In this document: positions 2,786-61,271 of the stretch, in pieces
Numbering within the stretch: position 1 is the first letter of the stretch
Layout: each line of letters opens with the position of its first letter
Sequence record: OK283619.1
Source of the DNA: Escherichia phage LPEK22
DNA: 64,000 nt
Strand: one strand, 5' to 3'
The notes under the pieces: generated by a model
What the model saw: only the letters and a program-made list of their open reading frames with translations
Database searches by the model: none
Told to the model about the DNA's origin: nothing
Translations under genes and position numbers: made by a program

Positions 2786-3111
2786 AAGTCGTCCACTTCA
2801 AGAAGGAACCACACGACGTCTACATTGGCCGTCCTGGCAAATGGGGAAACCCGTTCGAGGTCAAAGACCACGGGCGGGGAAACTGTATTGAGTTGTTTGA
2901 AGACGACTTGTATGTGCGCCTGATTGAAGGGGATATCACCGAAGATGAACTCCTTGAATTAGATGGAAAGACCTTGGGATGCTGGTGTAAGCCGCGCCCA
3001 TGTCATGGAGATGTTTATGTCAAAGTGATCGGTCGTATTAAACTATTCCGTAAGTTGGGTAAATCTTTTACTGAATATTTGAGACAAACATATGTCAGAA
3101 GAGAAAGATGA
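2782..3111 (+). CDS. DUF4326-like protein
   Basis: Motifs GRPGKWGNPF and CWCKPRPCHGDV recalled as DUF4326 signature. Confidence 0.5.
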   Translation: MKVVHFKKEPHDVYIGRPGKWGNPFEVKDHGRGNCIELFEDDLYVRLIEGDITEDELLELDGKTLGCWCKPRPCHGDVYVKVIGRIKLFRKLGKSFTEYLRQTYVRRER

Positions 3112-4742: not shown

Positions 4743-4760
4743 GGGGCAAAAGCCCCTTTA
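4743..4760 (+). terminator. terminator hairpin merging into promoter -35
   Basis: GGGGC-AAAA-GCCCC followed by TTTAC. Confidence 0.5.
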
Positions 4761-4784
4761 CTTCTTCAATAACCCACGTATAAT
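4757..4784 (+). promoter_or_regulatory. sigma70-like early promoter TTTAC-N17-TATAAT
   Basis: TTTAC (about 4757) and TATAAT (about 4779), then conserved leader before ATG 4833. Confidence 0.5.
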
Positions 4785-4832: not shown

Positions 4833-5108
4833 ATGAAAATCATCCTCGACGCATATATCCGTTACGGCAGCAAATGGTTGATGGCCAAAGTTTACGACGG
4901 TGAAGAATTAGTCCACGCCCAAACCGCCCCTTCTGAACAATTGCGTGAAATTATGAAACGCGATTTTCCTACTGCTGAAATGATTGAACCTGCCAACCAA
5001 ACCGAAGTTGACAAAGAATGGGAACGCGAATGGAGTCCGGCGGCGTTGGCACAATTTGATAAGAATTACAACAATCGCCAAAACGCGTCTCGCCCGTTCC
5101 GTCGTTAA
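4833..5108 (+). CDS. hypothetical small protein; start placed at ATG after conserved leader AGCAGGAACTACATTATG
   Basis: Downstream of terminator-promoter cassette; AGGA Shine-Dalgarno 8 nt upstream. Confidence 0.5.
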   Translation: MKIILDAYIRYGSKWLMAKVYDGEELVHAQTAPSEQLREIMKRDFPTAEMIEPANQTEVDKEWEREWSPAALAQFDKNYNNRQNASRPFRR

Positions 5109-10823: not shown

Positions 10824-10848
10824 AGGCCTCATTCTACGAGGCCTTTTA
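10824..10848 (+). terminator. rho-independent terminator
   Basis: AGGCCTC / GAGGCCT stem followed by TTTT. Confidence 0.6.
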
Positions 10849-10888
10849 AAATACTTCAAAAATAATTTAAAAATTTATTGAAAAAGAC

Positions 10889-10917
10889 TTTACTCTTCAA
10901 TAATCATGCACTATTAT
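10889..10917 (+). promoter_or_regulatory. sigma70-like promoter TTTAC-N18-TATTAT with AT-rich upstream element
   Basis: AT-rich tract 10850-10888, TTTAC, TATTAT; drives gene 10995. Confidence 0.5.
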
Positions 10918-10994
10918 AGTTCACATAGGGCGGTACACAACACCCCGCCGAATGAAAAGTGAAACGACCCAACTACATTATGAGGAATTACATC

Positions 10995-11483
10995 ATGGCT
11001 ACTACCAAAACTCTGATCACCAACGGCACCATCTCTTTTGAACTGAACACCGAAGTTGCAAAAGTTGAAATGTTCCGCATCGCTCAGGCAGCTGGCTTCA
11101 CTGGTGGCAAAACTTCCTTCATGAATCTGCTGAACGGCAAAGTGAAAGCGACCAACGGCTTCACCCTGGTAGAGCAGGTTGTCGTAGACAAAGCCGTGGT
11201 TGCCAAAACTGCTGACAAGGTTGGCATGCTGAAAGACCTGGGCCATGACATCCACGTTGTCGAAGCGAACACCGAAACTTACGGCACCATCGTAGTCGGC
11301 AAAGGCCGCATTCAGCTGAACCCGCTGAACAACGGAACCTTCTCCGTGATGGTATTCCCGAAAAAGGGTTATGACAACAGTGATATCGTGAAAGCGGCTG
11401 GTGGCGAAGCAAAAGCTCAGTACGTCAAAATGGGTAAACTGACCGCCAAAGACGTTCAGACCCTGGTAAGCAAACTGGCTTAA
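10995..11483 (+). CDS. hypothetical protein (163 aa), likely abundantly expressed
   Basis: Strong promoter with AT-rich upstream element, GAGGA SD, host-optimal codons (ctg, ggc, aaa, ccg), terminator immediately downstream. Confidence 0.55.
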   Translation: MATTKTLITNGTISFELNTEVAKVEMFRIAQAAGFTGGKTSFMNLLNGKVKATNGFTLVEQVVVDKAVVAKTADKVGMLKDLGHDIHVVEANTETYGTIVVGKGRIQLNPLNNGTFSVMVFPKKGYDNSDIVKAAGGEAKAQYVKMGKLTAKDVQTLVSKLA

Positions 11484-11489
11484 TCGAAA

Positions 11490-11518
11490 GGGGGGGGGGG
11501 GAAACTCCCCTCCTTATT
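11490..11518 (+). terminator. poly-G (12 nt) / CCCCTCC hairpin, terminator-like
   Basis: G12 tract, AAACT loop, CCCCTCC, then TTATTC. Confidence 0.45.
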
Positions 11519-11542
11519 CAGATTTTTGGTAGGAGATTCAAA

Positions 11543-11665
11543 ATGGACGAAGAAGTTCTGTATTGCCCGCATTGTGGTTCGGAAATGGAATTTGAAGACG
11601 GTGATTGCCCGCATTGCGGTGAGCACATGGACTCCTGGAAAGATAGTGAAGGAGACGACGAATGA
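11543..11665 (+). CDS. small zinc-ribbon protein (40 aa, MDEEVLYCPHCGSEMEFEDGDCPHCGEH...), not in ORF track
   Basis: Two CPHCG motifs; AGGAGA SD 6 nt upstream; ATGA overlap with next ORF. Confidence 0.4.
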   Translation: MDEEVLYCPHCGSEMEFEDGDCPHCGEHMDSWKDSEGDDE

Positions 11666-11859
11666 CCGCATACGAAATGTGCATCAACAACATCGCATTC
11701 ACTTTGTTCAACCGCAACCCGAACATGGTGAACTCAAGCCCCCCGAGCGCATTCGATTTCTCCCTCGGGCTGGCAGTGGGGTTCTGTAAGGACGCTCAGG
11801 AAGTGGTGATGGACATCGCCGCTGCCGTCGCTAAACTCCAGAGGGAGGAAGCAGCATGA
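11662..11859 (+). CDS. hypothetical protein (65 aa)
   Basis: ATGA-coupled chain. Confidence 0.35.
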   Translation: MTAYEMCINNIAFTLFNRNPNMVNSSPPSAFDFSLGLAVGFCKDAQEVVMDIAAAVAKLQREEAA

Positions 11860-22179: not shown

Positions 22180-22187
22180 TATTTATA
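22180..22187 (-). promoter_or_regulatory. T4-type late promoter box TATAAATA
   Basis: Exact TATAAATA on minus strand about 28 nt upstream of ATG of gene 21345..22151, with GGAGA SD between. Confidence 0.55.
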
Positions 22188-28820: not shown

Positions 28821-28898
28821 TATTCACGCCAGTCCGCGCTGATACAGCGTTCCGTTGTCTAACACAGAAGTGTTAACCAACTTTTCAATAAAAAGTGG

Positions 28899-28926
28899 TT
28901 TACATCTTCTAAAAAGGCAGTATATT
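28899..28926 (+). promoter_or_regulatory. sigma70-like promoter TTTAC-N17-TATATT
   Basis: Preceded by TTCAATAAAAA box; upstream of gene 28994. Confidence 0.45.
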
Positions 28927-28993: not shown

Positions 28994-29953
28994 ATGTCCT
29001 ATATTCTTCATATCGAGTCCGGCCTGAAATTTGAAATTGATGGTAAAACCGCTGCTGATCTTCAAGCAGAAATCAAAGGTGCAGACCTTATCATCGGCAA
29101 CGTCACGTTACGCCGTATGATGGAAGGCGTCCTCCAGTCAGCCAATGGCTTTGAACTCATCGAAGGTCTGAGCCAGGAAGAGAAAGAAGAGACTCTCGAA
29201 GCTCTTGACCGCGCTGAAGCCGAAAAAGTTAAACCGACCGAAGATGCGGGGGTTAAACAGGGCGACGGTGAATCAAATCCGGTGATTGACGCCGAAGAAA
29301 CGGTTGGGCAACCTGTCGGTGATCAAAATTCCCAGACCGTCGAAGACGGTTCTCTTGAAGTCAACAAAGACGGTTCCATTTCCCTGGTAGTTGAAGGCGA
29401 AGAAGTTCTTGACGAAGAAGCGCAAGCCCGTGCTGAAGAAGTTCGCCGTCGTATGCTGGGCACAACCGTTGCTGAAGCAATCGCCGACGTTGAAAATCCG
29501 AAGGATGATCAGGCTTTAGCGAACGCGAAGGCGGTTCTGGCCAAGAAATCTTCTGAAATGCGCCCTGCATCTTCTACCGAAGAACGCAAGCGTCGTCATA
29601 ACAAGCGTGAAGAAATGGTTGAAGCGGCTCGCGCATCCAATTATGGTCCTATCCTGGCTGCGGTTGAATCAGGGGTTGTGCCTGGGGTTTATTTGAGCTA
29701 TGTGAATCCGGATATGCGCTGGTTCCAGTTCCCTGTTACCGAACTGGCAGATGAAGCCAATCCACACGCCCGCACCAATACTTATGTTGATCTGGCGCCA
29801 ATCGTTTCCGGCGGCTGGGGGTTCAGTCTGTATGTGAATGGTAAATCATTCACCAAACGCCAGAAAATCAAAGAAACCGATGCCGAATCTCTGGTGAAAG
29901 CAATCAATGAATGGTTGCCTCAGGCGTTGGCCGAAGCGAAAGCTGCTGCGTAA
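28994..29953 (+). CDS. acidic hypothetical protein (319 aa)
   Basis: ORF downstream of TTTAC-N17-TATATT promoter; Glu/Asp-rich central region. Confidence 0.5.
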   Translation: MSYILHIESGLKFEIDGKTAADLQAEIKGADLIIGNVTLRRMMEGVLQSANGFELIEGLSQEEKEETLEALDRAEAEKVKPTEDAGVKQGDGESNPVIDAEETVGQPVGDQNSQTVEDGSLEVNKDGSISLVVEGEEVLDEEAQARAEEVRRRMLGTTVAEAIADVENPKDDQALANAKAVLAKKSSEMRPASSTEERKRRHNKREEMVEAARASNYGPILAAVESGVVPGVYLSYVNPDMRWFQFPVTELADEANPHARTNTYVDLAPIVSGGWGFSLYVNGKSFTKRQKIKETDAESLVKAINEWLPQALAEAKAAA

Positions 29954-29974: not shown

Positions 29975-30008
29975 AGATAAAGGGGCTGCTATAATAGCAG
30001 CTCCTTTT
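29975..30008 (+). terminator. hairpin with TATAAT in loop, terminator-like
   Basis: GCTGCT-ATAAT-AGCAGC followed by TCCTTTTGTTTG. Confidence 0.45.
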
Positions 30009-30010
30009 GT

Positions 30011-60761: not shown

Positions 60762-61271
60762 CTAGCCCAGAAACACTACTAAAGTCAAATTTGTGAGACT
60801 GGTCCGAGCATCCTGCAACATTTCACGGGCAGCGGCTAAACGTTTTACATCATGTAGAGTGTCAGAGAACACGATTATGTTAGCCTTATCGATCCTGGTC
60901 CCCATGAAATGGGTGATTGTCGTCGTGCTCTCTTTCTTGTCGACATCAGGGATAAGTAATTCTTCGCCCGTCTGAGGGTTGCGGGAAGGATAGAAGAATG
61001 CATCACGTTCACGAGAAGTATGGAAGATGCCAAACACATATGCGTCGTTTTCGACCTGAAACTTTTTAGAAAGTAGTTTCTTCAGAGCGGCTGTATGTCC
61101 GGTCTGGCGGAGCATTCTGTAGTAGAGCATGTTGCCGGAGCAAATAGGGTCTATCACTCCCCTAATCTGACGTTCCTTTTGTATCTCATACGCATCTGCC
61201 ACAAGCTGCTGGATCATATCGACATGGGCATTCATGGAGATTTCTATTTTACGTTTGATCATAGATTGCAT
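60762..61271 (-). CDS. hypothetical protein (169 aa)
   Basis: ORF. Confidence 0.45.
   Translation of the reverse strand: MQSMIKRKIEISMNAHVDMIQQLVADAYEIQKERQIRGVIDPICSGNMLYYRMLRQTGHTAALKKLLSKKFQVENDAYVFGIFHTSRERDAFFYPSRNPQTGEELLIPDVDKKESTTTITHFMGTRIDKANIIVFSDTLHDVKRLAAAREMLQDARTSLTNLTLVVFLG

Follow-up and report, generated by a model that had tools for sequence, protein, structure and literature searches.

Phages of the family Ackermannviridae (Vi01, CBA120, LIMEstone and the Klebsiella Taipeivirus phages among them) are widely used in biocontrol and therapy, and more than half of their genes have no assigned function. We asked what one of these genes might do in Escherichia phage LPEK22 (sequence record OK283619.1), of which a stretch of 64,000 nucleotides, hereafter called the window, was analysed. 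The window represents a Kuttervirus genome (Ackermannviridae, Vi01-like), and the 2.5 kb around the gene are 98-98.6% identical to Salmonella phages SeHz-1 and moki and to many other Kuttervirus members. The gene itself occupies positions 10995-11483 on the plus strand, from the ATG at 10995 to the TAA ending at 11483, and encodes 162 residues followed by the stop codon, where the initial annotation, made from the sequence alone, gave 163. It is equivalent to Vi01_089c, moki gp094, SFP10 SFP_0082 and PP35 orf072, all of which are called hypothetical, the orthologue being so labelled in ~350 phage genomes. It had been proposed to encode a probable high-abundance early protein. This proposal passes every sequence-level test that we ran, and from these tests we infer both abundance and early timing.

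Codon adaptation and expression signals

Codon usage sets the gene apart from its surroundings. Its codon adaptation index (CAI), computed with the Sharp-Li Escherichia coli weights, is 0.686, while the best of the ~95 other open reading frames (ORFs) of the window reaches 0.44. The codons are indeed host-optimal, as had been noticed at the outset, with 126 of 162 near-optimal and 7 rare. In the genome of moki, which is 98% identical to the window, CAI values average 0.28 with a standard deviation of 0.08. The orthologue gp094, at 0.70, stands about 5 standard deviations above that mean, and the only other gene matching its codon bias codes for the major head protein (0.695). Lower values were obtained for the HU-like protein (0.55), the prohead scaffold and the sliding clamp (0.52 each), the tail sheath (0.46) and SSB (0.42). 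The orthologues are also local CAI outliers in Limestonevirus (0.69), Miltonvirus (0.66), Taipeivirus (0.65) and Nezavisimistyvirus (0.58), and in two Vibrio phages they reach 0.44-0.48 compared with 0.24-0.36 for their neighbours. This bias across genera is the strongest evidence that very high expression would be a conserved, selected property, and among the non-structural genes of the genome this one seems to be the best optimised for expression.

The region upstream of the gene harbours a promoter of the sigma-70 or T4-early type, TTTACT-17 nucleotides-TATTAT, at 10889-10917 on the plus strand (TTTACT at 10889-10894, TATTAT at 10912-10917), identified in a promoter scan and identical in location to the TTTAC-N18-TATTAT promoter described in the initial annotation. 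An AT-rich, UP-element-like stretch, also reported there and read from the sequence at about 10849-10887 (plus strand), lies directly 5' of the -35 hexamer; it is conserved, with 42 of 44 positions identical to the window in both Vi01 and PP35 and 38 of 44 in KpS110. The CTTTAC and TAT..T motifs of the promoter are invariant in six phages of five genera, while the two most distant of these phages have diverged in the intergenic sequence around them. Two copies of the pattern CTTTAC-N17/18-TAWWWT are present in the window, where 0.15 would be expected. In the hexamer scan the promoter scores 9/12, and four other sites within 5-18 kb reach 10/12. The expression signals had been described as the strongest-looking of the window; this holds for codon adaptation, the highest of all ORFs, and is in keeping with the conservation of the promoter, but the hexamer match is not the best one. 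The T4-type late promoter TATAAATA is found nowhere in the upstream region of the gene, and its only two sites in the window, at 22180 and 26983, are on the minus strand.

The same core (CTTTACTTCTTCAATAA ... TATAAT) recurs in a second promoter at 4756-4784 on the plus strand, directly 3' of a hairpin. This promoter is located upstream of an ORF at 4833-5108 and of a cluster coding for a 793-residue protein and Dps/ferritin-like virion proteins. This suggests that the promoters at 4756-4784 and 10889-10917 belong to a small class of phage promoters that have a spacer sequence in common.

The leader of the predicted transcript starts, a few nucleotides 3' of the predicted transcription start, with a stem-loop (GGGCGG-loop-CCGCC, 10928-10950, plus strand; -10.6 kcal/mol, z -2.4), which is followed by ~45 nucleotides of A-rich leader without predicted structure. 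Five of six genera retain the stem, with a loop of variable length and sequence, and the PP35 version is 4 nucleotides shorter. This element may play a role in mRNA stability or regulation. The Shine-Dalgarno sequence GAGGA at 10982-10986 (plus strand), 8 nucleotides 5' of the ATG, is the ribosome-binding site initially recognised, and ATGAGG at this site is conserved in five of six aligned phages. Between the window and PP35, a Limestonevirus, 31 of 32 promoter positions and 44 of 45 leader positions are identical, whereas the coding region shows 88.5% nucleotide identity, with synonymous changes in 33 of 163 codons. Constraint on the regulatory region is therefore stronger than on synonymous sites. 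For comparison, Kuttervirus and Limestonevirus genomes are ~59% identical (PMC3296691).

Hairpins flank the gene on both sides. The upstream one, AGGCCUC-7 nucleotides-GAGGCCU followed by UUUU (10824-10848, with the hairpin at 10824-10844, plus strand), was identified by folding (-12.2 kcal/mol, z -3.9) and by its conservation in Vi01 and KpS110, and it is weakened in PP35. Its probable role is to end transcription of the primase operon and so to insulate the gene. The GC-rich downstream hairpin, G12-AAACU-CCCCUCC with a T-rich tail (11490-11527, hairpin at 11490-11513, plus strand), belongs to a 76-nucleotide stretch folding at -27.7 kcal/mol (z -2.7), and relatives carry GGGGAGG-aaact-CCCCTCC at the same position; it is probably the gene's own terminator. 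The gene had been credited with a terminator on either side. The hairpins are indeed there and are conserved, but in a terminator scan neither of them passes the T-run rule, the upstream T run being short. An Rfam search with the leader and the terminator returned no match. The run of 12 G residues at 11490-11501 constitutes the 5' arm of the downstream hairpin, at a place where Vi01, PP35 and KpS110 have GGGGAGG or similar; it may have arisen by expansion of a homopolymer or reflect an error of sequencing or assembly. Altogether, the sequence gives good support to the view that the gene is an insulated, monocistronic unit transcribed by a host-type RNA polymerase and tuned at every level for very high output.

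Protein family, predicted structure and virion content

The product aligns over its entire length with the PHROG 3764 profile (= pVOG VOG3086; expectation value (E) 2.2e-92, residues 1-162 on profile positions 1-162), so the ORF was already catalogued as belonging to an uncharacterised family. The members of PHROG 3764/VOG3086 are orthologues with 92-99% identity, found in the same place between primase and endolysin genes and with the same promoter and terminator. Using tblastn, we found homologues in 356 phage records and nowhere else, the phages infecting Salmonella, Escherichia, Shigella, Klebsiella, Dickeya, Serratia, Erwinia, Enterobacter, Vibrio and Aeromonas. An exhaustive hidden Markov model (HMM) search of 1.84 billion representative proteins yielded 39 clusters only. 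No relative turned up when 185,579 species genomes of bacteria and archaea were scanned by a pattern-based approach, and a host origin of the gene was rejected on that basis. Because its homologues were found in phages only, the gene can be considered a phage-restricted core gene of the Ackermannviridae. Its product is 92.6% identical between two subfamilies, compared with 60-85% for the products of four neighbouring genes. In most genera and in Pseudomonas phage Cygsa01, the gene is part of the replication and nucleotide-metabolism module, beside the primase gene; in the window it is flanked by the primase operon on one side and, on the other, by small ORFs and then the endolysin, PhoH and NrdAB genes. 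A literature search found no paper mentioning its locus tags.

The protein has a mass of 17.2 kDa, an isoelectric point (pI) of 9.5, a net charge of +6 and no Cys or Trp residues. The AlphaFold2 model (predicted local distance difference test score 82.7) consists of two domains, both with pI values above 9, that are joined by a low-confidence linker (residues 65-71). The N-terminal domain (N-domain, residues 1-64) is predicted to adopt a beta-beta-alpha-alpha-beta arrangement, in agreement with a separate model of that domain, and the C-terminal domain (C-domain, residues 75-162) an alpha-beta4-alpha-beta-alpha arrangement. Residues conserved throughout the family include A30, G34, the GG(K/R)TSF..L motif and G55 in the N-domain, and TETY.T, GR.Q..P, FS.M.FP.KG and K.QY in the C-domain; K49, R105, K124 and K140 are among the conserved basic positions. 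Of 38 diverse family members, 26 have a pI of at least 8.4.

Profile searches and structure prediction, which had been suggested as checks, yielded this two-domain model and no significant match to a characterised family. Pfam has no family for the protein or for 38 diverse homologues, and NCBIfam returned only sub-threshold noise (GlcV, 18.7 bits for a cut-off of 450). With no such family and no catalytic motif, the early remark that no enzymatic motif is visible stands, and that the product is non-enzymatic is well supported by all criteria applied to the sequence. A Foldseek search against BFVD retrieved uncharacterised orthologues only, the protein does not match the HU/IHF (Bac_DNA_binding) profile or fold, and nothing usable on this gene is given in the Phyre2 table of PMC10892097. 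As judged from the model, both domains thus appear to lack a match to a characterised fold, and the fold is treated as unassigned. Likeness to the UBC-like superfold (E2/UEV/RWD, with Atg3, Tsg101, GCN2-RWD and the bacterial CdnG-E2) amounts to 5-15% identity, with scores in the generic alpha/beta range, and an E2 enzyme was rejected, as the protein has no Cys and the family no conserved Cys column.

Several other candidates were discarded. With PDB sequence profiles, the full-length protein gave a match to uL10/P0 (E 0.11) confined to the local GxxGKTSF stretch, which vanished with the N-domain profile. Matches of the N-domain to deoxyribose-phosphate aldolase and to the FeoB G1 motif (E about 0.7-1), and of the C-domain to staphylococcal autolysin cell-wall-binding repeats (E 9e-4 summed, 0.6-1.8 per repeat), were judged local or due to chance. 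Residues A33-T40 fit the P-loop pattern [AG]x4GK[ST]; the FeoB G1 likeness is weak (E about 0.9), K39 is replaced by R, S or Q in homologues, the segment forms a loop between two helices in the model, and the domain of ~60 residues has no further nucleotide-binding motifs, such that a P-loop NTPase was rejected. By eye the N-domain might be taken for a LysM-like beta-alpha-alpha-beta fold, an Xre-type helix-turn-helix, a SAP or a helix-hairpin-helix domain, none of which is supported by profile or fold searches.

A local HMM search of all ORFs uncovered a paralogue in the same genome, a 319-residue protein (moki gp121, PHROG 3905) coded at 28994-29953 on the plus strand. It shares the N-domain of the 162-residue protein (E 0.0018; hhalign E 0.019) and, via the intermediates P0085 (E 1.6e-10) and P0084 (E 3e-5), also the C-domain, the two being separated by a long acidic linker. 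Its gene has a T4-early-like promoter (GTTTAC-N17-TATATT, 28898-28926), a terminator at about 29982-30009 and a CAI of 0.43, and it is present in 342 phage records. The paralogue evolves much faster: its Kuttervirus and Dickeya phage versions share 54% identity, whereas the figure for the 162-residue protein is 92.6%. More distant homologues harbour both domains with very different linker lengths, or the N-domain joined to other small domains including DUF3489. The genes next to those coding for distant N-domain-only homologues belong to phage replication and nucleotide metabolism and offer no functional clue.

Virion composition, another check proposed in the initial annotation, was assessed in two published proteomes, and neither reports the protein. 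It is not among the CsCl-purified virion proteins of Sajous1, for which endolysin, glutaredoxin, SSB and RegB are listed as traces (PMC10892097, Table 6), nor in the structural proteome of LIMEstone1, which includes the neighbouring PhoH and the Dps-like proteins (PMC3296691, Table 2). In part of the raw Table S3, none of the conserved tryptic peptides of the protein is present. Its sequence would give at least seven tryptic peptides of 9-23 residues, and poor detectability is therefore an unlikely cause of its absence from the virion lists. That absence indicates that the product is not part of the virion, but it carries no information on abundance.

Possible functions of the product

Two candidate functions, host-takeover factor and DNA-binding protein, both put forward in the initial annotation, are the leading readings of these data. 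We tentatively favour the second one, in the form of a bulk, stoichiometric architectural protein that would bind nucleic acids, and hold it with low confidence. A strong host-type promoter and its UP-like element would drive a monocistronic early unit, whose mRNA would carry one hairpin close to its predicted 5' end and a second, terminator hairpin at which the unit is closed, and the coding sequence is tuned for translation as high as that of the major capsid protein. The resulting small, basic, non-enzymatic and non-virion protein, with its two alpha/beta domains on a flexible linker, would act in bulk rather than catalytically, coating or bridging DNA from the first minutes of infection. 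Its target might be the host nucleoid, or phage DNA in the course of replication with its hypermodified thymidines. Bulk nucleic-acid binding is favoured because of the basic charge of both domains, an architecture suited to bridging, the location in the replication module beside the primase and a faint similarity to DNA-binding folds. Comparable proteins are T4 MotB, T4 Ndd and SPO1 TF1, the last of which belongs to the HU family and has a preference for hydroxymethyluracil DNA. All are similarly small, basic, early, abundant and non-virion proteins, the timing and abundance being predicted in our case. They differ from the LPEK22 protein in that the latter has no HU, KOW or OB fold or sequence match and that the phage has separate HU-like and histone-like genes. 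The Vi01-like phage family carries hydroxymethyluracil-derived thymidine hypermodifications (PMC5889632).

A number of observations weigh against an architectural nucleic-acid-binding role. Sequence and profile searches gave no significant match to any DNA- or RNA-binding domain, and about a quarter of the family members are neutral or acidic. The phage already encodes a 169-residue 'histone family DNA-binding' protein (60762-61271, minus strand) and a separate 92-residue HU-like protein (moki gp073, outside or upstream of the window). Since the CAI of the latter gene is the third-highest of the genome, the phage seems to invest heavily in DNA-architectural proteins. A very high level of the product late in infection is not evident either, given that SSB, glutaredoxin, RegB and endolysin, but not this product, were listed as traces in virions (PMC10892097), and our literature search turned up neither a transcriptome nor a proteome of infected cells for any member of the Ackermannviridae. 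In addition, an hhalign comparison of the family alignment A2 with T4 MotA gave a probability of 0.3% over 14 columns. This last result also counts against a MotA-like activator, whose N-domain would contact RNA polymerase and whose C-domain would bind the promoter DNA of middle genes and switch them on. T4 MotA activates middle transcription and has a C-terminal double-wing DNA-binding domain. Both proteins are early, the present one by prediction, and consist of two domains and a linker. However, the N-domain of T4 MotA is all-helical and thus appears to differ from the beta-beta-alpha-alpha-beta domain predicted here, an activator needs no capsid-level expression, and neither AsiA nor MotA has a detectable homologue in the genome (best E 0.73 and 3.3, respectively, the former from a phmmer search with T4 AsiA as query that covered every ORF of moki and the window), which makes this the least probable of the functions considered, and a highly improbable one.

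The main rival to the architectural reading is a stoichiometric host-takeover factor acting through protein binding, an early bulk product that would titrate, re-target or chaperone a plentiful, conserved host machine, such as ribosomes, RNA polymerase, nucleoid proteins or a protease, with its two domains serving as an adaptor. The early promoter and the capsid-level codon bias would suit a protein that titrates an abundant target, its extreme conservation would suit an interface with a conserved partner, and the lack of catalytic motifs and of conserved Cys residues is compatible with such a role. The consistently basic charge, however, would not be needed and no candidate partner was identified, and we consider this function somewhat unlikely. 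T7 Ocr (gp0.3), a model of an abundant stoichiometric binder made early, is, as the LPEK22 protein is predicted to be, early, non-virion and non-enzymatic, and both appear to act by mass action, but Ocr is a highly acidic DNA mimic coded by an accessory gene, in contrast with a basic protein coded by a core gene. Another reading is an anti-defence sponge or decoy, which would capture a small signalling molecule or protect against a host immune sensor. Such a protein would similarly be early, abundant, small and non-enzymatic, as the protein is predicted to be, and the invariant polar/aromatic cluster T93, E94, T95, Y96, R105, Q107, K140, Q142 and Y143 could form a ligand pocket. Anti-defence genes are usually accessory and fast-evolving, whereas the present gene is kept in conserved synteny in most genera, from Salmonella to Pseudomonas phages, and its product is among the most conserved ones locally; a decoy is thus improbable. 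The fact that only the major head protein gene has an equal codon bias, together with matches to chaperone-like folds, could point to a capsid-related assembly factor or to a loosely bound decoration protein, required in as many copies as the capsid protein and then lost or degraded before or during virion purification. This is very improbable, as the promoter is of the sigma-70 early type with no TATAAATA late promoter in the upstream region, the gene is located in the replication module, far from the head genes, and the protein is absent from both virion lists (PMC10892097; PMC3296691).

The architectural nucleic-acid-binding reading has a bolder version, in which the protein and its 319-residue paralogue would found a new structural family, expressed at capsid level in the first minutes of infection and coating or organising DNA in a manner specific to the Ackermannviridae. 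We regard this version as unlikely. It could involve selective binding of the phage genome modified with aminoethoxy-methyl-uracil, marking or protecting it, or else compaction of the host nucleoid. In either case the protein would correspond in function to TF1 of SPO1 or Ndd of T4, but with an unrelated two-domain fold that has not been seen before.

What our analyses add to the existing catalogue entry is the codon adaptation equal to that of the capsid gene, the conservation of this bias and of the regulatory cassette across genera, the paralogue in the same genome and two domains that appear to match no characterised fold. As a core gene conserved beyond its neighbours and coding for a 17 kDa, soluble-looking protein without recognisable fold, it is a high-priority experimental target that is easy to test, the clear prediction being very high abundance early on, and a good target rather than a surprising discovery. 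The identity of its partner, be it DNA, RNA or a host machine, would show how Ackermannviridae take over the cell. The promoter-leader-terminator cassette may also serve as a compact, strong expression unit.

Start-site annotation and neighbouring loci

The start of the gene at 10995 is backed by the alignment of orthologue N termini and by the spacing to the ribosome-binding site. Longer versions starting at the GTG at 10959, as in the mechanically called ORF, or at the in-frame ATG at 10980 are unsupported, the latter codon sitting within the ribosome-binding site. Some annotations could over-extend the N terminus by 5 or 12 residues (starts at 10980 and 10959, respectively). In Vibrio phage K452, the annotated ATG of the orthologue (L012, 2962-3513) overlaps a TATAAT box located at promoter-like spacing 3' of TTGCGT. 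That start appears to be placed too far upstream, with homology beginning at 3001.

The gene of the paralogue (28994-29953) is found just upstream of putative kinase and thymidylate-synthase-like genes. Directly 3' of the terminator of the 162-residue protein gene, two ORFs on the plus strand code for a 40-residue CxxC...CxxC zinc-ribbon protein (11543-11665) and for a 65-residue protein (11662-11859). Both ORFs occur in the window and in moki, and KpS110 has a similar zinc-ribbon ORF in that place. Because they are missing in Vi01, SFP10 and PP35, the region 11543-11859 is a hot spot of insertion and deletion.
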